Numbered from the stretch's first letter, positions 33,401-45,378 are shown. The stretch is DNA of 64,000 bases from Bispira polyomma (GCA_965649765.1 OZ287756.1:43462001-43526000), one strand, 5' to 3'. The notes: generated by a model not told the origin, from the sequence alone. Made by a program: numbers and translations.

Positions 33401-36400
33401 TAAAATAAAGAACAATACTGATGTTCCCTTCTATTTATACTGATATCTTGTGACTTCTTTGGCAGGTATCCACAAGTCATATTTTGGTGGCCATTGTAAC
33501 CATAGTACCAAAAACTTCTTTTTGACGCCCTTTAAATTTTTGGCTCTTAAGAATTTTTTCCACTTTATAATACTCGCTGGCAACGGCTTTCTATAACCCT
33601 TCTTCGTAAAAAGTTCCTTCAATGGATTCGCCTGCATAAATTTTCACTTTGTAGGTAGGATAGCTTTGAGACCTCAGTCTCTATTTATTATTTTAAAAAG
33701 TTCACCACTCTATCTCTGATCGCATTCTCTACTAAATGTTTTTCTGCCATGTGATATTCTGACAAGATCCCCAACATTAAATTAAAACTTTTTTTTCTTG
33801 AAATTTTTCCTTGATGGCTCAAGTTGTTTGCCGTTACTTTGGCTGGGGCCATTTTTTTAGAACGAGGTACATTCTGGTTGTAAGCATCGGTAATATCTTG
33901 CAACACTTTGATGTACCTATAGGATTGTTGGTAAGTAAAGTATTTGTAAATTTTTAATGGTCTTAATAGCTCTTTCAGCACAATTTGTGGGGCCGCCGTG
34001 GCCTAGTGGTTAGCAAGCATTGCGCTTCACAATCACTGGTCTCTCACCTCTGGGCGGCGTGAGTTTGAATCCCGTCGATGCTTATGTGGGAAAGGTGGTA
34101 GTTCCTTACTGTTGGCCGCTTGTTTCAGTGCAGAACCTAGATCAACTGTATGCAGTGTTTCTTCCAGCGTTTCCAACTACCCGTCCCAATATAACATAAA
34201 TAGGTACTAGAGTGGACGTTAAATATCCCAATTTAAAAAAAAAAAAAAAATTCAGCGTAATTTGCATTGACTTCATTTTGCGTTGCAAAATGTCGAACAG
34301 AATGTGTTTTAAATTACTGCTGCACTTTATAACCTGTAAGCTTGGTCCCTTTACGGACCGCATGGTTTCTGGTGTCCTTTCCTTGAAAACCAATGAGAAA
34401 GCACAAACAACTTCATCTCCAGATTTGTTCTTCAAAGGCACTGTCCACACATACCGTGAAAATATATCTATGGCTAACAGAACAAAATGGTCAATGTCAT
34501 TGTATTGGGCAATTTTGGTCATATCCATCAGGTCAACATCTCACTGCTGATCTATACTCCCTGCAATGACTTTTATTTTTTTAATAGTCCTTCTTGCAGG
34601 TTTGCAATAAGTCTCTTCTCCACTTAACCAGGATTTCACATCTGTTAGGGTTACAGAGCGGTCTTCTTTTATTGCAGCCTCAAAAAGCTTTTGGGGCCCA
34701 GAAAAACTAGCAGGATGGGCAGGATTAAAGTAAATTTAAGTAAGAAGTTTGTTCATTGTTTCTTTTGTATAGTGGGACTTGGCAGAGAATAACCCAGAGA
34801 TGAACTCAATAACTGCAACCAGACTTCTCGGTTGTGCTGATTAATCGTTGGAGCCACAAATTTCACTAACGATTTCTTACAGAAGTTATCCATTAGGAGT
34901 TATCCATTAGATTTTCAGTGCACAAATGACTTGAAATTATGTATGTTGCCTGTATATATACATTTCAGGACACAATAACTATTTTGAGCAGTGAACATAT
35001 CATGTGGACCATTATGTGTATTACCTGTTAATATGTATATTTCAGGAGTTTTTTAGGCATTGAAACATAACATGTGGATATTACTGAACCTCAAATTTAT
35101 TATTAATGGCTAAAACAGAAACATCAAATGTCGCACAACTTGCGACAATTTATCGCACACCTAGCAACAATTTGTTGCACAAATTTAAACAGGTTTACCC
35201 ATCTATCATTTAAATCTGCTACAATTTGTCGCACAGCTTGCGACAATTTGTCGCACAGTGTGCGACAATTTGTTGTACAGCTTGCATCAATGTTTAGCAT
35301 CACCATAGCAACCAACACCAAATCAGCAGGCTGTTCGGGGGTGTTTTGCTCACTCTATACTAATAGCAGAGCACACTAATTTTGTACATGAAGTGGGGAC
35401 TGGAAGTGAAAGGGACTCAAATTAGTAGAGGGGAGGGACATAGTGCAGGGGCTAGAGACTGGAATTAAAAGGGACTTATAACAGTAGAAGGGAAAGTTAT
35501 GGCAATAACCCCCCCCCCTTAAAAATACTAGAGAGTAAACGAGGTGTCACATATAAAAATTATTAATATTCACCTATATAATGGATGTACCTCTTTAATT
35601 TTACAATTATCTCACTTTACACCTATGTCTTGCCTCCCCTTGTCCTATTCTTATTCAGGTCATCTAGGCCCCACTTGGTCTATATATTGGCTCTCTACTT
35701 TTACTTCTAAAGCTATCTTACTCTACACCCATACCCTTACATTTCCTCTTCTTGATCTTATTTAGGTCATACAGCAGCTGTATACCTTTAGGTCTATAGC
35801 TATCTCATTCCAAACATATATTCAACCTCCCATCTTCCTCCTCCTCTGTCTGCAATATAAGTTATCCAGGCCACCTGTGACCTACTTAATAACTGTATAC
35901 CATTACGTCTACAGCTATCCAACTCCAACATCTACCATACCTCCCCTCCTCCTACCATCTTCCTCCTCTTCTGTCCCCAATCTAGGTCATCTAGGCACCA
36001 TGTGACCTAGATAACAGCTGCATACCTTTACTTCTACATTTATCTCATTTCACGCACATATATCCTACCTTGTCTATTCCTCCTTTGTCTCCAATCTAGG
36101 TCATACATGCACCATGTGACCTGTATAATAGCTGTATCCTTTTATTTCTATAGCTATCCCATTCCACATATCTACCATACCTTGCCTCTTCCTCCTTTGT
36201 CTCTGGTCTAGGTCTTCCAGGCACCATGTGACCTACATAATAGCTGCATACCTCTACTTCTATAGCTATCTCATTCTAGACATATACCATACCTGCCCTC
36301 TTCATCCTCCTCTTCTGTCTCCAATTCAGGTCATCCAGGCCCCACCTTGCCAGTAGGGTACTCAGCCTGGCACTGAGGTACAGTTTTGACTTCTTTACTG

Positions 36401-39400
36401 GGTTGACATTGCACACACTGATTGCTGGGAAGTCTAGTTCTCTATGTTGTGTCCACTCTATGTCCACAGTCACCTGACAGATGTAAATGCTTAGATTTTA
36501 GATTTAATATCAAGTGCAGCCAGATATTGTTTTCACTCTGAATGGGGTGCGGCCATGTTGGAAACTGCCAACATGTTGGAAATAATATGTAAATCTTTCA
36601 TGGATTGCTTTGAAACAATCAACCCGGTCAAATTGAAAATAATATCTAAGGCCTTCGAATGAAGGGTGCAAGGAAATCTTTCTAAAATTTGTTTTCTGTT
36701 CTTTAAACAACTGATAAAGACTGCTGGGACCCAAAATATAATATTTTATCAACAATTTAGATTAAATGGAACTAGCTCCATGGTTCAAAAGAAGTCGACG
36801 AAGCCAAGACACTTTAAGTCCTTAAATAAAGCAGTTGAGGTCTATCATTTTCAATCCTCCTTGTAAGTATCTCTGGGTCAATTGTTTTCTTTTGATTTTA
36901 TCCGGTTTACCATCCCAAATGAACTTATAAAAATATTTGTTCAGCTGCCATTCAATTCAATTTTAGGATTTGGAATAGTAATGAAGCGATGATAACATTT
37001 TAGTAAGATTATAGTTTTTAATACTGTGATTTTCCCTATTTGTGTTAAATACCGGCTCATCCAACTGTTCAAAAGTTTTTCTACTTTTATTAATACCAGT
37101 TTATAGTTGAGATCAACAACATTATCCAAGTCAACTGATAATAGTATTCCTAATAATTTTGCTGCCAACAGAAAATCAGTTGTGCCATCTAACATTAGGA
37201 TCGTGTCAGCAGCAAACTGTGTTAGCTTTAGTTCATTTTGACCAATTGTTATTACTTTAATACTTTTGTTTTGCTCAACCAGAATTAATATCTGTGCACA
37301 GAGAATAAATAAATATGGTGCTACTGGGTCTCCATGTCTGCAACCTTTTCAATCTTTATAAAATCAGACAATATACCACATTGCATCACAGTTGCCTTAA
37401 TATTTTTATGGAAAGTTTTAATCAAATGTATTATACTAATACCAAAACCTAAGAATTTTAATACTGAATATAGGAACCTCCATGAAACAGAATCAAAAAC
37501 TTTCTCAAAGTTAACAAGCATCAGAAGCCCTGGAATATTTAAATGCTCGGTAAACTGTATTATGCCGTATATTAAATGAGTGCAGCCACCTATTTAACAG
37601 CCGCTAATAAATCCTGACTGATTTTTTTATATAAGTTTTCGAAAAAACTTTTTTATTCTATTAGCAATGGCAGTAGAGCCAATTTTGTAAAAAACAGACA
37701 GTAAGGATATAGGACGCCAATTTTTTAAGAATTCTCTTGGTTTGTCACCCTTGTGTGGACAACTTATTTATGCATTGGCCTAATGAAATAGACATTTCTC
37801 CACTTTTGTAAGCATAGTTCAAAGCTCTGAGAATAAAAATTTTAGTTACTCCCAAAATACTTAAAAAAATTCCGCAGGAAAACCATCTATATCAGGACAT
37901 TTTCAATTTTTCATTGATTTTAGAACGTCACTAAGTCTGTTACCATCTAGAGGCCCTTCAAGTTCAAGTAATTCACTTTCTGATAATTGATTTATATTAT
38001 TGTTTTGAAATAATATTTTCAAAATTTATTTCAGTCAAAGATTAATCATTATTTTTAAATAATAATTAATAAAAGTTTTTTAGTTCTAATAAAATTTTGT
38101 TTTGATCTGTGATGATCTGACCATCTGATCTTAGTACATGTTTTACTGTTTTTTCAAGACAATATTTGGAGGGTTTCTCTCGGTCTTTTAACCATTGGGT
38201 CCTAGATCTTATAGCTATCCCTTTGACCTTTTCATCTCTTATTACTTGCAATTCTTTCTTTTTATCCTCAAACAGATCAAAATTACATAAATTACGTAAT
38301 CTTTTTCTAGCATTTCAATATCAGCCATGAGCTCTTTTTCTTTCGTATTCAAGCTCTTTTTTAACCTTGAAGCAAATTTTACCGTTTCACCTCTCATTTT
38401 TAGAAGCAATAATTCAAGGAATAGACAGGTCATTTATTATCAATTTCAAGTCTGTATCTGAGATCTTATCAAAGTTTTCAAAGTTATAAACTGGAACAGT
38501 GGACTCTTGCTTTTCAGTTTCTATTAATGTGTTTATCATCCTGAACAGTTAAACTTCCATACTCCTTTGCCTCTTTCATATTTGCAAAGAAACAGGTTTA
38601 ATTCAATTATTGAATGATCTATGCGATAGCCAGGCCTTATGTTATAGTCATTTATTAGATGTAGTAGTGAATTTGAAGCAATAAAATAATCTAACCACGC
38701 TTGCTGCATTTGAGTTTTCCTTCGCCATGTATATCTTTTACTATTTGGATGAAAGTATCGAAATGCGTCAGTCAAGCTACAAGCGTTTATCGTGTGGAGT
38801 AAAGAGTTGTGAGCTTTAGGGTTATTGATGTATTTATAGCTTCTAGTGTCAACTGAGGGTTCTAATGCTAAATTAAAATCGCCCCATATTATTATATAGT
38901 CCTGCTGACTTATAATGATCATTTCTTGAATGTTTTTATAGAAATCAGGTGAGTCTCTATTTGACGCGTAAATATTAATAATTTTAATGGAGAGATTACT
39001 TAACTCCAAATCAAGAGAGATAAGATTTCCACTGTCATCACTGAAGACTGATTGTATTTTATGTTCGAAATTGCCTTTAAGCAGAATTGCAAGCCCTCTT
39101 GCATTGGACCTTCGACCATTTAACATGCAATCGCCCCTCCAAATTTGTTTATTTGATTTCACATATGTGTCCAACAAATGTGTGTCTTGTAGACAAATTG
39201 TTCCTGCTCGCAAATTTTTTAAATAATGTAAAACATCTGTTCTTTTTAATGTCTCTTAAGCCTCGACAGTTTACTGACAACACCTTAAGATTATCTCCTA
39301 TAATGATATTTCTGAATGGTTCGATTCTCTATTAACAGCATTATGACATAATAAGAATTTACCTCAAAGTACAAACATTTGATGTGGTTTATTCCAGATA

Positions 39401-42400
39401 AAAGAATATATTCTGCAGTAGAGTATATAAGGGTAAAGTAACAACCTGAGAGAATGGCATGAACCATGTCTTCATCAATTATCAGTTTTCAAATATTCTG
39501 TGGGTATAGATATTTTTAAAAAATACAATATAAATCAATTCAGTAGAAATTCATTTTAACAATTCTGAATTACTGAGTGTCTGTCTACTCATTAAATCTA
39601 TTATCTTGACAGGGTTAGCTATACCATCTAAATAGGAATTTTTATTGAGAGGTAAACCCTGTTTAGTCAAAACACAAGGGACGACAATGAGTACTTTTGC
39701 TTAGGCAGACGTTCCACTTAACAGGAATGTAGTGCACATCATAAATTCAATTCTATTTAACAGGGAAATTAACTTAACAGACAGGGTTTGACTTATATTA
39801 CATTTGCAAAATTTATTGTAAGTGGTTTATCCAATATTAATAATACTTAAAGTTCTGGTAGGACAATATATATGATCCAATATTCATAATCATTAAAACA
39901 GTATATAATACATCATATAATTATTATTTAACTCATATTATACCAATGTTTACAATACTTAAATGTTAAATTCATCATATTTTTTATCCCATATTCAAAG
40001 TGCTTAAAATTCTATCTAAACAATATATACTTCATCGTGTATTCAAATATTTACATGTCCACACTGTCTGTTATCAAATTATCAATGTCTTTATAATAGA
40101 TTAGGTACTGGAAGTTAAAAAAATTAAACTTCAGAATTACCACAAGAATTTTTTCAAAATATATACTATAAAATTATAAAAACTTTTGTCTCTGAACTAA
40201 TTCGAACTTACAGTGTTTATTTCCCTAAAGGTTGAGATGCTGCCTCTCTGATGTACTAGAATTTTTTTGGTCCTGTACGTGTGCCACGAACCATTGAGTT
40301 ACCACAATCAGTTTATTGGTAATGTCATTGTCACCGTTTTAGCGTGTACCGGAGGGAGACCGCTACGAAAAAAACACCATAAAACTTTGTAAAAGATCGT
40401 CGGTTTGGGCTATATTTCCACGTTTATTTCTTACTATTTATGTTTTTCTACCATTTTTACATTAAATTTGAGTAATTTTGCTATTTTGTATTGTGAATTT
40501 AGCTAGAAACCATAATACCCGATCATCGCCCACTACGTTTGGCGGGAGTGGGCCGTCCTCTACTGTACCATAATATTTTGTAATAAGGTCGTCGTTTTTG
40601 CCGATATCTGTACATTTATTTATTACTATTTTTTGATATTTCTACCCCTTTTACATTGATTTTTGTCTCATTTTGCTGTTCTATATTGTAAATTTTTTGC
40701 CAATATCTGTACATTTATTTATTACTATTTATGATTTTTCTACCCCTTTTACATTGATTTTTGTCTAATTTTGCTATTCTATATTGTAAAATTACCACTA
40801 TAATTATTGTCTCATCTTTTGTTGCTACATGTTGGTGTGGTTATACTTAGCTTAAGGTCAGGCTATAGTGTGGGGTGCTAGGGTGCCCGTGAGTCGCCCA
40901 CGGGACGAAGAATTGTGCGGTGAGTTGTAGGGACAAACTTTCTGGTTTTCATACACTTGTTCTTGTCGTAAATTTCCTACCACCATTAATGGAAGAGGTC
41001 TTATCTTGTTACTTTTACTCGCCGGTGATGTGTCCCTTAACCCTGGTCCTGTCATGCTCGGGGTGTTAAATGCTAGATCCGTGAGGAACAAGGGTCCACT
41101 CCTTGCAGATATTGTGACATCGCACGACCTCGACTTCCTTTGTGTCACTGAGACCCATGTCCGTCTATCTGATACGGATAGCTTCCTACTGTCTGTTACT
41201 CCTCCAGATTTTGTGTTTCCTCAAATGCCTCGTCCCTCACGTATTGGTGGCGGTGTTGGTTTCTTCATCAGAGCCTCCTACAAACCACATAAAATAGATT
41301 CTCCTGTCTATCAGTCCTTTGAAAATATGGTGGTGTCAATTGGGCTTCATGTCCGCTCACTGTTGCTTGTCTGCGTCTATCGCCCCCCAGGATCATGTAC
41401 CTGTAATTTTTTAGAAGAATTTATGTCTTTTGTTGGTTTCTTGTCTTCCATTAACAGTTCATATCATATCTGTGGTGACTTTAACATCCATGTTGATGCA
41501 CCAGTTGGTGACGGTCATAAATTTATGACCTTTCTTGATTCATGCGATGTAAAACAGTCAGTTAGACAACCTACCCATCTGCATGGTCACATTCTGGACC
41601 TTATTTTATCTCCTTGTGATCAGGATGCTATTGTGGATGTCAAAGTCTGTGATTTCATATCGGATCATGCATTAGTCAAATGCTCAATTGCCTCTCCCCC
41701 ACAGGTGGCTCATATTCCTATTACAGTGCATTATAGGAGGTACCACCGTATTAACATGTCTGACCTCCGTACTGATCTTGAGAGTACTTCCTTTATTAAG
41801 TCACCTGCCAATTCTGTAGCTAAACTTTATGAACAATACATACATGACTTGGGTGATGTACTAGATAAGCATGCACCACTTGTATCCAGAATGTCAAAGA
41901 AAGATTCTGTGCATTGGCTCTCTGATTCTTACCGACGGGCAAAATCTCTCAGGCGCCAATATGAAAGAACTTGGCGAAGGGCCAAGAATCCATTAAATAG
42001 AAGTCGACTACGTCGCCAGATTGCTCGGTGCAATGTACTTGTTAACGAGGATAAGTCGGTGTATTACAGCAAGCTTATCTCTGACAACAGTCACAACTCC
42101 AGGAAGCTGTGGCACGAACTGCGCAAGACCCTTAATATGGATACCAATGTGGCACTCCCGTCCCATGATTCGGATAAATCACTAGCTGATAAGTTTGCTT
42201 CCTTTTTTTCGGACAAAATTAAGAGAATTGGAGATACTTTTGTTGTCTCTGGAACTAAAATTGATGTTCATCCTCTTTCTGATCCCCCAGAAATTATTGC
42301 CTTTACCAGAGTCTCTGAAGATCATGTTAGTAAAATAATAAGTAACTCGCCTACAAAATCCTGCATGTTGGATCCATGGCCAACATCTCTTATTAAAGAA

Positions 42401-45378
42401 TGTAGTGATATATTACTACCATCCATTACAAAGCTTGTAAACTGCTCACTTATGGAGGGGCATGTACCTGATGGTTTTAAAACAGCTGTGGTTACTCCTC
42501 TTATTAAGAAGGCTTCTCTTCCAGTTGATGACCTGAAGAATTATCGCCCTGTATCTGGTCTTAGTTTCACATCAAAACTGGTTGAACGTGTGGTTGCTAG
42601 GCAACTGTTAGATCACATCTTTGTCCACGACTTAGACAACCCATACCAGTCTGCGTATAAAACTGGTCATTCGACTGAGACAGCTCTTCTGTCTATAAAA
42701 AATGAAGTTCACCTATCTTTGTCAAGAGGGGAACCTACTGCCCTGGTATTGCTCGACCTCTCTGCTGCCTTTGACACCATTGATCATTCCACGCTTCTCA
42801 GTTGTCTTCAGACTTGGTTTGGAGTTAGGGGCTCTGTTCTTAAATGGTTCACTTCCTACTTAACTGATCGTTATCAGTCGATAAAAATTAGCTCTACTCT
42901 GTCCGATCTTTGTAAACTCTTGTTTGGTGTTCCTCAAGGTTCTGTTTTGGGCCCTCTGTTGTTCTCGTTATACACTTCCCCTCTCAGATTGGTTATTGGC
43001 AAATACACAGGAATAAAGTTTCATTTTTGTGCAGATGATACCCAAATTTATGTGCACCTATCCCATAAAAACACATCTACTGCCTTTGAACAGTTTAACA
43101 AGCGCCTTGACGATGTGAAAGAGTGGATGTCAACTGGCAAACTCAAACTTAATCCCGATAAGACTGAGTTCATAATCTTTGGCTCAAAACAACAGAGGGA
43201 TAAGTTGAAAGCATTGTTCCCAGTTGACATCCTGGGTAGCCCTTTCAGTCCAGCTGATTCTGTCAAGAACCTGGGTGTATGGTTTGACTCTGACTTTTCT
43301 TTCTCTAAACACGTTCAGAGTGTCTGCAAAAGCTGTTTTATGCAACTCCGTGACTTTAGACGTGTCAGACGGTTTCTCACTTATGATGCTTCTATACTTG
43401 TGGCCAATGCTTTTGTCAGTAGTAGACTGGATTATTGCAATTCACTTTTCAGGAGTCTCTCAAAGTTTAATTTACGCAAATTACAATGCATTCAATGCAT
43501 ACAATTACAATTGTCCTTGAGTATTGATAGAATGTTCTTACCAGCTCCCCAGTCTCTGGGATCATCAAAATGTTCTACTAATCTGACACTGCTTCCTAAA
43601 CGATAGGCATAAATATTATGCTCAGCTCTGGCAACGCATGTATGCATACAAATTGCCTTCAGGGCTGGAATGACATCATCTTGGCAGGTTATATCCACAG
43701 CATGGCCTTGAAAAGTACTTCCTAAGTATGACTTGGGTGGTACTGATGATACTTTTAACTCAAGTGCTCTGTCTGACACAATCAAATTGTTATCCTGAAC
43801 TTTATCATTTCTGGGTTCTATCATATGCTCATTCACAAGCAATTTATCCATAAACCACCTTGTCTTCTGCTGTTTCTGATTGGCATCACGAAATACAGGC
43901 ATAAGTTTCTGCTTGCGACTCTGCATCTCATTTGGAAGTTGTTCGCTGACTCCAAAGCGTTTTGTTCTATCCCAGTTCTTAACATGCTGTAGGATAATTG
44001 GCTTATTGTTTTAAGGACTGGTGCTGGAAATTAGAACAGTGTTCCCTGCTTTGCCAACACACTGGCCTTTACGCAAGTCTACATATTAAACTAAACGTAA
44101 ATTAAGAGCTCAAATTCAATTCACTGGTTTAAGTTTGTCCTCAAAGACATGATAGCAAGTATGTTTCAGTATTTTGTCACATAACCAGACTTTCACAGAT
44201 CCTTCAGTTTGTATTGTCAAAATGAACTTTAATGGAGAGTTTGAGACCATGATTCACAAAACTGACTTTGATCTTTTCCAGAAAAAATTGTTAGACCTCT
44301 TTTTTTAAGTATTTATAGAAACAAATAATTCCTTATCCACCGTTTCAATGTACATTAGTAGAGAATAATTATACCTTAGCGTAATAACAATAAGTAAACA
44401 CAAGAATAGTCACCTTTTATTTACAGAAGAATTATTCTTTATGTTAATAACAAAAAATAAACGCAGGAATGCTCCCCTAATATTTATAGAAGAACTATTT
44501 ATTAAGTTTATAATAATTTTAAACACAGAAATTGTCACCACTTATTTGCAGAAGAACTATTTCTTAGGTTAATAATAGTTAATAAACACACAAATATTCA
44601 TCTCATATTTATAAAAGAATTATTCCTTCGGTTAATAACAATTAATAAACACAGGAATTGTCGCATCATATTTACAGAAGAATTATTTCTTAGGTTAATA
44701 ACAATTAATAAACACAGGAATACTCACCTCATATTTAAAATAAACCACAGCCAATGAAATAACTTGATACAAGAGTACCCCACTGGCACCCAGACTGGTA
44801 AGTGTCCAGAAGAGCTTCTTACAAACACCTGTAAAGTTTAACTACAGGTGTACACGATTTGATAAGTAATTTACTCAAATATGTTAATGTTAAAGACTAC
44901 AATCGAATTGATTGGGGTGTTTTTGTGTTTTTTAGCAAAACAGGCAGGGAGACTGTTCCATTCAGAAGGTGCTGTGACTAGAACTGGCTTGATTTTCAGT
45001 GAAACGTTAGAGGTCACTCAGGAACACCTATGGGGACACATTCCCCTTTCTAATTAAATAAAGATAAGTCATTTGGAATATAAAGTTGGTTTCTATGCGG
45101 TAAATATGACTAATGCTGGTTGAGTGACAGTCGCAAATATGCAATTAGTATTAAAAAGAGTACTGAATATAATGTAGATAAGAGTGCCGAGTATAAATTT
45201 GAATACAATACAACACAACAACGGAAGTACCAAACTGACCCCTTCCCTTGGCTATGTGTGGGTAACCATGTACCGTGCTGTGACTCCAGAAGTTTTCCTG
45301 CACCTCTCTCTGACTCAACTGATGAACTGCCTTGTCCTGTTTACCAAACAAAGCTTTGGGGATGTACATAATTGCCAT
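8059..45378 (-). CDS. Multi-exon DEG/ENaC (ASC family) sodium channel with an inserted C-type lectin domain; 16 coding exons, ~919-949 aa
   Basis: Hand-spliced exons give, in order: HG motif (STVHGYPHI), TM1, FPAISVCN, CTLD, MGY..C.FQG..C, YGNCYVFN, GLELLLNIQQDEY, Cys-rich thumb, WP, LNIYYEQL, and TM2 GNVGTNLCLWLGCS. All junctions are GT-AG with matching phases; total 2850 nt (or 2760 nt), divisible by 3. Confidence 0.93.
9644..9790 (-). CDS. DEG/ENaC exon 15
   Basis: QGFAEKYNTTISLSNGTSKAEFISRNILRLNIYYEQLNSKSIDEKPKYL, phase 0->0. Confidence 0.9.
11674..11731 (-). CDS. DEG/ENaC exon 14
   Basis: EVRYSAENSKGLWPPVISQ (conserved WP), phase 2->0. Confidence 0.88.
12100..12300 (-). mobile_element. 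Decayed tRNA-derived SINE
   Basis: Reverse-strand A-box GTGGCCTAGTGG at ~12280-12292 and a tail resembling gttgaaagcgacataaaac. Confidence 0.5.
12486..12558 (-). CDS. DEG/ENaC exon 13
   Basis: DRCMYLIETQYIKDELECDCPQPC, phase 1->2. Confidence 0.9.
13130..13600 (+). mobile_element. 3' end of an L2/CR1-type LINE with (TTA)n tail
   Basis: LKSLHWLPV, RAFSTAAPTEWNKLP, FKQKLKTF; (tta)n at ~13583-13602. Confidence 0.85.
13875..14020 (-). CDS. DEG/ENaC exon 12: Cys-rich thumb
   Basis: YSTASCYKTCYQQHVISQCRCADPQYPMYGSAFPTFEYTSCDNRNLSQ, phase 2->1. Confidence 0.92.
14859..14956 (-). CDS. DEG/ENaC exon 11
   Basis: ISVSRLSGDYGICLDSAAIVTDRDVFQELFPV, phase 0->2. Confidence 0.88.
16379..16542 (-). CDS. 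DEG/ENaC exon 10
   Basis: GLELLLNIQQDEYLAGVSQGAGVSVTIHPQSRMPFPADEGYLVLPGHLTSISIKK, phase 1->0. Confidence 0.93.
16570..16860. repeat. Tandem repeat, ~58-bp unit with ~117-bp dimer structure, just upstream of the exon 10 acceptor
   Basis: About 5 copies of cattggtttagac..gtcacatgact..ccctgagta.atgagaaac. Confidence 0.8.
17202..17317 (-). CDS. DEG/ENaC exon 9
   Basis: DFGYLFDSLYGNCYVFNSGWNWNISRPFYTSSRTGSSL (YGNCYxFN signature), phase 2->1. Confidence 0.92.
17480..17775 (-). mobile_element. 3' terminus of an L2-type LINE, same family as 24910-25160
   Basis: Shared gctttattgatgc..ttctaaagcacaacagc..gtccatgg..gctaaggtgggtaggc sequence; FRKKLKTYLF in reverse frame. Confidence 0.75.
17984..18232. 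mobile_element. MITE with ~20-bp TIRs
   Basis: aagtctagacttccttttagc ... gctgaagggaagcctaggctt, in TAA context. Confidence 0.6.
18799..19038 (-). CDS. DEG/ENaC exon 8: finger domain; in-frame TGA at 19008-19010 if acceptor 19038 is used, alternative in-phase acceptor at 18948
   Basis: MYPYFYIKK*EVNHMTFNQSYDCGYITDTREEPLREDF...KREMGYTYSEFVLYCGFQGKECQQ|gttagt. Confidence 0.8.
19366..19450 (-). CDS. DEG/ENaC exon 7: Thr/Glu-rich stalk or linker
   Basis: atacag|EPETTPVIAENTTESHTTGTANVERDVF|gtaatc; open frame, phase 1->2, which is the phase needed to join exon 8. Confidence 0.7.
19485..19703 (-). mobile_element. Decayed tRNA-derived SINE
   Basis: Reverse head GGGCCGCGGTGGCCTAGT at ~19686-19703, matching the 47000 SINE head; tail gttgaaagtgatgtaaaac. 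Confidence 0.6.
20758..20853 (-). CDS. DEG/ENaC exon 6: C-type lectin domain, C-terminal part
   Basis: tttcag|GTSSNCVIINRQGTWNTRPCSDDYSFVCQSTL|gtgagc, phase 1->1. Confidence 0.88.
20908..21008. repeat. 28-bp inverted repeat (26/28 match) with 45-nt spacer
   Basis: tatctattctggttatctgggtagggta (20908-20935) and taccctatccagataaccggaatagata (20981-21008). Confidence 0.9.
21039..21203. mobile_element. Palindromic fold-back MITE
   Basis: tagaaataaattccct..ctttattagagattaaa is inverted against tttaatctccaataaa..aggaatttacttcta. Confidence 0.6.
21439..21483. repeat. (TA)n microsatellite
   Basis: Direct inspection. Confidence 0.9.
22383..22495 (-). CDS. DEG/ENaC exon 5: C-type lectin domain, middle part with EPN
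   Basis: gacag|EFYSGLTDLSVEGQWEWVDGSGLDWSNWRLEDQEPNG|gtaatg, phase 2->1. Confidence 0.88.
22868..23610 (+). mobile_element. Solo LTR of the Gypsy element at 60438-64000
   Basis: TGTTACA...GTAACA termini, perfect 5-bp TSD GTAAT (22863-22867 and 23611-23615), reverse-complement match to 60438-61222, TATA box at ~23041. Confidence 0.93.
24400..24830 (-). mobile_element. L2/CR1 LINE 3' fragment
   Basis: YCNSLL, LQSIQNHLCRVV, FFAAAPTTWNNQ-like motifs, frameshifted. Confidence 0.7.
24910..27180 (-). mobile_element. Decayed L2/CR1-type LINE ORF2
   Basis: ISDY..(EN end), ILDKHAP, PQGSVLG, MYADDTQVY, KLNPDKTE, LDYCNSLL, LHWLPI; (taa)n tail. Confidence 0.9.
27370..27550 (-). CDS. DEG/ENaC exon 4: C-type lectin domain, N-terminal part
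   Basis: ctttcag|VSSPCTTTILPSTSLCYWMVTNVHTFTEALAECQTGGGTLLHMTSPEVNTFLDKHGFIGT|gtgatt, phase 1->2; CY..F.EA..C...GG.L..S.E.N.FL pattern. Confidence 0.85.
28440..28983 (-). pseudogene. Polinton A32/FtsK-like packaging ATPase
   Basis: HPFTCLVAGPPGSGKT (Walker A), FLILDDMM (Walker B), SHHHNISVIVVTQN, YMVLFKNPRD, PYSYLFIDL; frameshifted. Confidence 0.9.
29030..29230. repeat. Tandem repeat of ~22-31 bp (ggaggtgtggagatgtagaggttccacatgt) inside the Polinton
   Basis: Direct inspection; explains the overlapping spurious ORFs. Confidence 0.9.
29650..30014 (-). pseudogene. Polinton adenain-like cysteine protease
   Basis: GVFSRDQL, ICNTD, THWV, YFDSYGLPP. Confidence 0.85.
30016..31300 (-). pseudogene. 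Polinton major capsid protein (double jelly-roll), frameshifted
   Basis: ELDLFAIPLTQTSIEEGKWVEY, YPYKACIEALL, GQIPKRIVLG, FDLPPDL, FENTIEID. Confidence 0.88.
31290..31640 (-). pseudogene. Polinton small basic/amphipathic core-like protein
   Basis: SQVGIG...LFKGLVRVAPPLLKKGAIAL..GKKAL..GVGLAQD pattern typical of Polinton small ORFs. Confidence 0.6.
31658..32327 (-). pseudogene. Polinton minor capsid (penton) protein
   Basis: YVYLPS..LSGKWEVGL; LYIYCDLIEPVAVGDAKVPLLRIVP...ALHF. Confidence 0.85.
32390..33036 (-). pseudogene. Conserved Polinton hypothetical protein
   Basis: KMVVIP..; GE.....ITGSHITDLI; C-terminal KWES. Confidence 0.6.
33050..33378 (-). pseudogene. Conserved Polinton small protein
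   Basis: ECAHNLPEGNIPL..KLGKYK..LREL..ILQTGKFLPAL. Confidence 0.6.
33431..34756 (-). pseudogene. Polinton retroviral-like integrase with C-terminal chromodomain, interrupted by a SINE
   Basis: YFNPAHPASFSG, DLMDM, AIDIFSRYVWTVPLKNK, AYN..MAPAKV, FLVLWLQWPPKYDLWIP. Confidence 0.9.
33988..34250 (+). mobile_element. tRNA-derived SINE inserted in the Polinton integrase
   Basis: A box TGGCCTAGTGG, B box GAGTTTGAATCCC, poly(A), TSD ttcagcacaatttg/ttcagcgtaatttg; near-identical to 47000-47265. Confidence 0.93.
35690..36346. repeat. Tandem repeat (~112-118 bp, ~5-6 copies) whose unit includes the 3' end of exon 3 and its splice donor
   Basis: Repeated tagctatc.cattcc.cat..accatacct..ctcttcctcct.tgtctccaatctaggtcatccaggcacc; the last copy is exon 3 sequence. 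Confidence 0.85.
36293..36473 (-). CDS. DEG/ENaC exon 3: FPAISVCN motif and polybasic furin site
   Basis: VTVDIEWTQHRELDFPAISVCNVNPVKKSKL...NWRQKRRMKRA, phase 0->1, donor gtatgg. Confidence 0.92.
40333..43509 (+). mobile_element. Young L2/CR1-type LINE, 5'-complete and 3'-truncated, flanked by ATTGTC duplication
   Basis: ATTGTC at 40327-40332 and 43510-43515; removing the insert restores the host IMPACT reading frame (LKDNDITNK). Confidence 0.88.
41006..43509 (+). CDS. L2/CR1 LINE ORF2 (2A-like motif, APE endonuclease, RT), uninterrupted for ~830 codons; YADD mutated to CADD
   Basis: LLLAGDVSLNPGP, NARS, VTET, YRPP, GDFN, ISDH, NYRPVS, DLSAAFDT, GVPQGSVLGP, CADD, LNPDKTE. Confidence 0.92.
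44340..44740. repeat. Tandem repeat (~62 bp, ~6 copies) whose unit spans the exon 2 splice donor
   Basis: Repeated aataacaattaataaacacaggaat..tcacc.catatttacagaagaattatt; the last copy contains the true donor (tactcacctc). Confidence 0.85.
44728..44828 (-). CDS. DEG/ENaC exon 2: TM1
   Basis: tttacag|GVCKKLFWTLTSLGASGVLLYQVISLAVVYFKYE|gtgagt, phase 1->0. Confidence 0.9.
45240..45378 (-). CDS. DEG/ENaC exon 1: cytoplasmic N-terminus with HG gating motif
   Basis: MAIMYIPKALFGKQDKAVHQLSQREVQENFWSHSTVHGYPHIAKGR; donor G|gtcagt; an acceptor at 45404 implies an upstream 5'UTR exon. Confidence 0.88.

Follow-up and report, generated by a model that had tools for sequence, protein, structure and literature searches.

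LINE ORF1 Proteins Ending in the IMPACT/YigZ Ancient Domain in the Genome of Bispira polyomma

Overview

At least 20 LINE families of the Bispira polyomma genome encode an ORF1 protein that terminates in the IMPACT/YigZ ancient domain (UPF0029, PF01205). The domain order of this protein runs from a putative coiled coil through RRM and CTD to the ancient domain, and the fusion is common to several RT lineages and to one non-L1 LINE. We regard it as almost certainly real and functional. It was recognized in a 64,000-nucleotide stretch of DNA (hereafter the window), for which a preliminary description had proposed that a LINE family captured the domain. Capture within a LINE ORF1 stands, but it concerns these many families and not a single one.

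A Dead LINE in the Window

The window contains a dead L1-group LINE, truncated at both its 5′ and 3′ ends, whose ORF1 ends in a UPF0029 domain (table 1). All of the peptides on which the preliminary description relied were found on the minus strand. As it had stated, an L1-ORF1-like segment continues in frame into the IMPACT domain: the frame 43495–44010 matches PF01205/UPF0029 with 30.7–32.4 bits over profile positions 2–72, above the cut-off of 27. Everything 5′ of position 43997 is gone from this ORF1. Of the IMPACT motifs listed earlier, the DDGE-type motif reads DDPRD in this copy where relatives have DDARE/DDRE; a conserved Glu is gone and an Arg is replaced by Gln.

Resumption of the domain beyond an L2 insertion had also been proposed. 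Its last third indeed lies on the other side of the insert, the sequence ATTGTC is found on both flanks, and the insertion point is uninterrupted in all five close relatives (L042–L046), whose domains end in a TRWFGGxHIGPKRFQYIRxAA-like sequence. The C-terminal piece in the window carries a one-base frameshift and one stop. The inserted element, presumably of the L2 type to judge from its motifs, has lost its 3′ end, and a 14-nt filler stands ahead of the duplication. It belongs to a young family, with 39 other copies 99–100% identical (40 scored among 770 candidates), and the seven relatives inspected all extend past the point where the window insert stops.

The ORF2 of the older element, in the same orientation, starts 897 nt downstream of ORF1, in agreement with the distance of about 0.9 kb given previously for an L1 EN-RT ORF2. 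It matches the endonuclease profiles PF03372/PF14529, contains many stops and frame changes, and ends near 36661, whereas relatives extend about 1.4 kb further. In the RT tree, it clusters with L042 (support 98). Its motifs make this LINE a putative Tx1 element. As both ends of the copy are lost, neither a poly(A) nor a target duplication is visible there. An Rfam search of positions 36000–45000 gave no match. Because the window copy is decayed, the evidence for function presented below is taken from other copies.

Table 1. Features of the Interrupted LINE Copy and of Its Insert (Positions in the Window).
Feature	Position	Strand	Evidence
5′-truncated LINE ORF1 remnant: end of RRM, CTD, and linker	43723..43997	-	DNA identity 92–94% to L042–L046 (43510–43997)
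IMPACT/YigZ ancient domain (UPF0029), N-terminal two thirds, ORF1 frame maintained	43510..43722	-	PF01205
6-bp duplication ATTGTC (on +), right copy	43510..43515	.	Sequence; single copy in uninterrupted relatives
Younger L2-type LINE within the ancient domain; EN-RT frame 40931–43495	40333..43509	+	RVT_1, Exo_endo_phos
6-bp duplication ATTGTC, left copy	40327..40332	.	Sequence; uninterrupted relatives
Ancient domain, C-terminal third, and ORF1 stop (40217–40219)	40217..40326	-	Comparison with L042–L048; translation
ORF1–ORF2 spacer, AT-rich, about 0.9 kb	39329..40216	-	GC about 0.30; present in relatives too
Decayed L1-group ORF2 (endonuclease and RT), without its 3′ part	36661..39328	-	Pfam; about 90% DNA identity to L042–L045

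Copy Number, Linkage to ORF2, and Mobility

The genome searched amounts to 1.04 Gb in 75 contigs. It yielded 398 candidates with the window peptide and 427 with PF01205, 150 of which were scored in each case. All 150 scored PF01205 matches passed the cut-off, and the genome therefore contains at least 150 matches. We extracted 80 PF01205 loci with 10 kb around them, hand-picked and biased toward long open frames. A co-oriented EN or RT lies downstream in 76 of these 80 loci. A looser count based on window-derived queries reached 79/80, but three of the loci have short EN matches only, and the stricter figure was adopted. Four loci devoid of ORF2, considered as possible ORF1-only retrocopies, resembled truncations or rearrangements. 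The linkage was also observed in a sample chosen independently of the domain, namely 40 additional loci retrieved with RRM-CTD (40 of the 150 listed, mainly from lower ranks): 37 carry the ancient domain and 39 an ORF2.

The 51 long ORF1 frames, all of which run without a break into the domain as their last part, form 20 families at 85% identity. One of these families is young. Its 11 copies are 98.7–99.6% identical across a 7.4-kb unit that encodes an ORF1 of 513 aa and an ORF2 of 1292 aa with EN, RT, and zf-RVT (Exo_endo_phos, RVT_1, and zf-RVT). This ORF2 scores 378 bits against human L1 ORF2p versus 90 against R2. The copies have A-tails, and they are flanked by duplications of 13–18 nt in six of nine cases and of 7–8 nt in two, the remaining case being ambiguous. 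This family has moved recently, domain included. Throughout the IMPACT loci, ORF1 and ORF2 are separated by a long, AT-rich spacer (median 1.18 kb, n = 108 of 117).

Beyond this genome, a scan of metagenome contigs returned one weak locus among 114 candidates. Among public proteins, RRM-CTD followed by the ancient domain was found in 140 of the 150 best matches from 1.84 billion 50%-identity representatives.

Anatomy and Fold of the ORF1 Protein

The last 285 residues of the ORF1 protein of an intact relative (L032) were modeled from a 47-row alignment (pLDDT 91.7). Residues 1–147 of the model superpose on human L1 ORF1p (2yko; Z 14.3, rmsd 2.2, 139 residues), and the RRM-CTD was also connected to L1 ORF1p by profile comparison (E 1e-4) and by Foldseek (E 2e-7). 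Residues 165–285 match 2cve (Z 16.8, rmsd 1.9), E. coli YigZ (1vi7, Z 15.4), and Yih1 (6bqi, Z 10.4); weak matches were obtained with a 30S ribosomal protein (Z 6.1) and with the YicC endoribonuclease (Z 6.6). A putative N-terminal coiled coil is suggested by weak matches, at residues about 140–240, to various coiled-coil families, and the profile match to 2ykp begins at the coiled-coil end of that structure. This part is absent from the truncated window copy.

PF01205 scores 57–92 bits in the ORF1s scanned (9/9; cut-off 27), and in complete copies the stop codon of ORF1 lies 0–7 residues past the ancient domain. The RWD domain (PF05773), already described as lacking here, was found neither in the ORF1s scanned (10 proteins and a scan of sister ORF1s) nor in 20 public ORF1-type matches; its position is occupied by RRM-CTD in the LINE protein. 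Paracoccus has a stand-alone YigZ of 117 aa, which indicates that the ancient domain can be encoded without an RWD. No NADAR domain (PF08719) was detected in the IMPACT-type ORF1s scanned. The net charge of the ancient domain is about 0, unlike that of a basic RNA-binding patch.

Selection and Conserved Residues

The ancient domain is under purifying selection. In nine independent family pairs, the pooled pN is 0.26 versus a pS of 0.77, the latter near saturation. The RRM-CTD behaves alike in the family pairs compared (pN 0.29, pS 0.81). In the three pairs with a defined dS, dN/dS of the ancient domain is 0.08–0.19.

The columns of E. coli YigZ residues S23, H54, E77, and R104, which we take to be its putative catalytic site, are all four maintained in 20 of 21 genome families and in 99 of 145 public ORF1s. 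The Ser column is the weakest, being conserved in 106 of the 145 public proteins and replaced, mainly by Asn, in 39; the H, E, and R columns are found together in 124. Among 166 diverged LINE domains, the polar His, Asp, Asp, Glu, and Arg are conserved at 93–97%, above most hydrophobic positions.

We defined as host-conserved the columns with at least 85% conservation among 55 eukaryotic hosts. Mean retention in LINEs is 0.79 for the 18 columns shared with bacteria (n = 4) versus 0.41 for the 19 eukaryote-only columns (p = 0.0006), the conservation of C-terminal eukaryote-only residues being inflated by the use of the last host exon to gather the host set. Six residues that are near-invariant in eukaryotic IMPACT alone (D9, R10, K39, D102, N108, and R112) occur in only 2–9% of LINE domains; among the strongly lost residues, D9, R10, and K39 alone are free of the last-exon bias. 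The eukaryote-type residues F14, R103, F104, and I107 are still present. The lost eukaryote-only residues may form the face that contacts the RWD.

Origin of the Domain

The host IMPACT gene, located at G000:C4:58.68 Mb and separate from the LINEs, consists of an RWD exon and a four-exon ancient domain. A protein query gave LINE copies alone, and the gene was found with a motif pattern (one match). Its closest counterparts are the IMPACT proteins of oyster and brachiopod (65%), which suggests a lophotrochozoan host, and its identity to 67 LINE domains of the same genome is at most 39%. The ancient domain of the LINEs is intronless, and the mean identity among LINE domains is 34%.

A domain tree was built with 225 rows (329 before removal of near copies). 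All 166 LINE domains fall on one side of a branch (support 98; 99 in a 60-row subset), a clade that involves long branches and whose definition is circular in part, the public rows having been gathered with a LINE profile. The host gene is placed with mollusc and brachiopod genes. The LINE domains stand apart from the host IMPACT, but AU tests, run on 60 of the 225 rows and with too few columns (122), reject neither a clade uniting them with their own host gene (p 0.39) nor one uniting them with bacteria (p 0.57). Against the LINE profile, animal IMPACTs score 124–144 bits (one gapped protein, 91), fungi and an oomycete 110–130, and four bacteria 42–89. These scores favor a eukaryotic donor. 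We infer that the domain was captured once, long ago, from the IMPACT mRNA of a eukaryote, probably an animal, and that the RWD was lost.

Alternation with NADAR and Exchange of ORF1

Among the RRM-picked ORF1s, three are devoid of the ancient domain: two (L156 and L158) end in a NADAR domain (116–119 bits), and the third is deleted. NADAR domains are associated with N-glycosidase/ADP-ribose chemistry. There are 2147 NADAR candidates in the genome. RRM-CTD lies upstream in all 20 NADAR loci examined, IMPACT is nearby in none, and 19 have an ORF2. The spacer of the NADAR-type elements has a median of 1.08 kb (n = 17).

ORF1 and RT trees were compared for 41 family representatives, out of 105 loci having both parts among 139. 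On the RRM-CTD tree, the distribution of IMPACT and NADAR labels takes a single change (support 98), versus eight on the RT tree, six of which are forced by strong branches. Constraining the IMPACT-type RTs as one group was rejected (AU p = 2e-6). The RT of L047 is 94% identical to that of L031 and 44% to that of L042; its ORF1 is 70% identical to that of L042 and 61% to that of L031. The single label change on the ORF1 tree, compared with eight on the RT tree, identifies the entire ORF1 as the unit of exchange, both between RT lineages and onto a non-L1 LINE. The best ORF2 match of the 117 IMPACT loci is of the L1 group in 103 cases, a distant ORF2 in nine, and L2 type in one; four have none. 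The distant ORF2 family, presumably CR1-like, includes six copies that are 98–99% identical, and its ORF2 scores only 68 bits against L1 ORF2p. In one member, L152, both the ORF1 (434 aa) and the ORF2 (1139 aa) are open; the two frames of L031, from another young family, are open as well. Exchange of the entire ORF1 between LINE lineages has been proposed for other LINEs (PMC4120745, in part), and the occurrence of NADAR in the ORF1 of Crassostrea gigas Tx1 LINEs has been published (PMC12477816, in part).

Possible Functions of the Ancient Domain

UPF0029 domains occur from bacteria to mammals. To our knowledge, the activity of UPF0029 itself has remained unknown for over twenty years, and studies of IMPACT center on its RWD half. 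We propose, with a probability of roughly 0.45, that in the LINEs the ancient domain lends the RNP an accessory activity dependent on the domain's pocket, as an enzyme or a ligand-binding module rather than a GCN2 regulator. L1 ORF1p coats the RNA of the element, and the coat would consequently display many copies of the ancient domain on the RNP. The substrate of the Ser/His/Asp-Asp/Glu/Arg pocket might be small or linked to nucleic acid and encountered by the RNP, such as damage or a modification made by the host. Such a substrate would explain the interchangeability of IMPACT and NADAR. A pocket activity is favored by the conservation of the universal face and not of the IMPACT-specific face, and by the other tenant of the slot being an enzyme domain. 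It is further favored over a role in GCN2 control since inhibition of GCN2 requires the RWD (PMC5054600 and PMC13094546, both in part), and since a region of Yih1 that overlaps the linker/RWD side suffices to bind Gcn1, actin, and ribosomes (PMC4503747, in part). According to part of the same paper, the function and partners of the ancient domain “remain elusive.” On the other hand, the universal residues could serve to bind a conserved partner, for which the ribosome and tRNA are candidates, and two domains that occupy one slot, as IMPACT and NADAR do, need not have similar roles.

A conserved partner is the essence of a possible, though in our view rather unlikely, alternative, in which ORF1p is linked through the domain with ribosomes or with translation factors, to the benefit of cis preference or of ORF2 being translated beyond the 1-kb spacer. 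The spacer length in IMPACT loci (median 1.18 kb) would fit, and so would the binding of IMPACT/Yih1 to ribosomes (PMC13094546, in part), the name “ribosomal protein S5 domain 2-type” given to the fold in the sources, and the weak matches of the model to the 30S protein and YicC; a universal partner would also account for the universal residues. However, the ribosome-binding region of Yih1 overlaps the linker, which the LINE protein lacks (PMC4503747, in part), the domain is not basic, and the equally long spacer of the NADAR-type elements (1.08 kb) indicates that a spacer of this kind does not require the ancient domain. The preliminary description had suggested, besides RNP formation, a role in host translational stress responses, which the data bear out weakly. 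Without an RWD of its own, the domain would bind in trans to the RWD of GCN2 or IMPACT of the host, and eIF2α phosphorylation and the capture of the RNP by stress granules would thereby be lowered. The ancient domain of Yih1 closes on its RWD, blocking Gcn1 binding (PMC13094546, in part), human L1 is restricted by raised eIF2α phosphorylation and stress granules (PMC4489885, in part), and the donor appears eukaryotic from the profile scores. Against this stand the lack of any RWD in the ORF1s scanned, the location of the Yih1 binding region near the linker (PMC4503747, in part), the rarity in LINE domains of the six eukaryote-only residues whose putative role is to face the RWD, and a distribution of ORF1p that is the same in GCN2-null cells (cited in PMC4489885, in part). 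We consider this role improbable.

Still less probable is a structural add-on without specific ligand, affecting the oligomerization, stability, or condensate behavior of ORF1p. Varied and shuffled accessory domains are known in ORF1 (PMC4120745, in part) and the low mean identity of the LINE domains (34%) would suit such a role, but it does not account for polar residues kept at 93–97% in 166 diverged domains. Finally, an intronless domain and a broken window copy are what a one-off processed pseudogene of the host IMPACT, or a neutral passenger beside a LINE, would leave. This explanation was rejected on the grounds of copy number, with at least 150 genomic matches and 51 in-frame ORF1s of 20 families, of purifying selection, and of linkage to ORF2 in 76/80 loci. 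The identity to the host gene of at most 39% and the order of RRM-CTD and domain in 140 of the best 150 public clusters also speak against it, and we give it practically no weight.

Novelty and Implications

We did not find a LINE ORF1–IMPACT fusion in the literature searched (titles, abstract starts, and some full texts, with Repbase and subscription journals outside this scope). The main text of PMC4120745 contains the terms IMPACT and UPF0029 zero times, and the fusion is not mentioned in parts of PMC6431247 and PMC12477816 or in two of the three supplements of PMC5203782. Among the titles and abstract starts listed for PF01205, IPR001498, UPF0029, or Impact N-terminal, none deals with transposons. 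Accessory ORF1 domains and ORF1 swapping were already known; new here, within the literature searched, is the ancient domain as an ORF1 accessory that alternates with NADAR.

Hundreds of diverged versions of the ancient domain, selected in the absence of the RWD, mark the residues needed for its own job, and retrotransposition offers a direct read-out for testing it. IMPACT and NADAR payloads trade places as whole ORF1 cassettes, as an arms race would predict. More speculatively, and in our view rather improbably, the ancient domain might be an enzyme that marine invertebrate LINEs use together with NADAR as interchangeable counter-defense payloads on a traded ORF1 cassette. This would imply an undescribed chemical host defense against retrotransposon RNPs.

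Comparison with Known Systems

The body of the protein, RRM-CTD with a putative coiled coil ahead of it, is like that of type II LINE ORF1p (coiled coil-RRM-CTD), represented by human L1 (PDB 2yko, 2ykp, 2ldy, and 2w7a; classes in PMC4120745, in part). Like L1, these elements have an EN-RT ORF2 downstream of ORF1, a poly(A) tail, and target duplications. They differ from the type II ORF1p elements by the 120-residue ancient domain added at the C-terminus, by the noncoding spacer of 1–1.5 kb, and by the movement of the whole ORF1 among RT lineages. The NADAR ORF1 of oyster Tx1 LINEs likewise carries a widely conserved borrowed domain at the end of a similar ORF1 (PMC12477816, in part), and the NADAR-type ORF1s of the present genome share the slot and the long spacer of the IMPACT type. 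However, NADAR is of another fold and family, and the two domains are mutually exclusive in all loci examined.

Compared with IMPACT/Yih1 (6bqi), the ancient domain is alike (63 bits by sequence and 100 bits by profile) and includes the eukaryote-type C-terminal RF..I motif, whereas the RWD, the linker, the introns, and many eukaryote-specific residues are missing, and the LINE domain evolves faster. The best fold matches are bacterial YigZ proteins (1vi7 and 2cve), whose S23/H54/D74-D75/E77/R104 columns are also found in the LINE domain; the second domain of YigZ is lacking, and YigZ scores below eukaryotic IMPACT with the profile. Esterase (type IV) and PHD ORF1s also combine an accessory domain with whole-ORF1 exchange (PMC4120745, in part). 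In contrast with these, the exchange described here takes place between two payload types inside one genome.

IMPACT-Type ORF1s in Unusual Arrangements

Several LINE copies depart from the simple succession of an IMPACT-type ORF1, that is, one ending in an IMPACT/YigZ ancient domain, and an ORF2. In six dispersed copies (L091-L096), a common stop codon marks the point where the ancient domain begins (109-aa frame), and all six retain a downstream ORF2. They may represent a subfamily that spread either with the ancient domain uncoupled from ORF1 or with the stop read through. At L104, a single ORF2 is preceded by a tandem pair of differing IMPACT-type ORF1s, possibly an intermediate of ORF1 swapping. 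In a young family, a 258-nt duplication, 85% identical, spans the 5' UTR and the ORF1 start (L032).

An IMPACT-type ORF1 was also found on a young non-L1 LINE family, whose spacer contains 176-nt tandem repeats. Its ORF2 starts with the motif DVQPNPGP, which we take to resemble 2A-like sequences.

Among the four bacteria scored on the profile of LINE ancient domains, a 117-aa YigZ of Paracoccus, encoded alone and carrying a eukaryote-like C-terminal motif, ranked first (89 bits).

Positions of features in the window and at other loci
Feature	Locus	Position	Strand
Tandem IMPACT-type ORF1s	L104	3-755; 1743-2636	
Duplication	L032	1242-1765	
Young non-L1 LINE with IMPACT-type ORF1	L152	563-6735	
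Same	L149, L151, L154, L155, L164		
Stand-alone YigZ	L127	384-737	
L2-type insert end: filler, 6-bp duplication	window	43496-43515	
Exon-like stretch	window	about 36350-36500	minus
AT-rich tandem repeat with units of roughly 60 nt	window	44430-44750	
ORF1-NADAR fusion	L156	935-1942	
ORF1-NADAR fusion	L158	6101-7297	
ORF1-NADAR fusions	L171-L190		

Surroundings of the Window LINE

Although its 3' end is missing, the L2-type insert is flanked by a 6-bp duplication and has a 14-nt filler composed of local repeats. It breaks off immediately before an A-rich spot in the family sequence, a position expected from internal priming or a repair-type insertion. A short tandem repeat lies upstream of the ORF1 break. 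Directly past the 3' break of the window LINE, an exon-like stretch reads FPAISVCNVNPV, presumably a DEG/ENaC channel motif; the LINE may lie inside an intron of the gene to which this stretch belongs.

NADAR-Bearing ORF1s

ORF1-NADAR fusions are very numerous in this genome, the genome-wide search yielding 2147 candidates. Their ORF2 partners are L1-group, CR1-like, and L2-like, "CR1-like" and "L2" being labels that we assume for these ORF2 types. An ORF1-NADAR fusion has already been published in oyster (PMC12477816).
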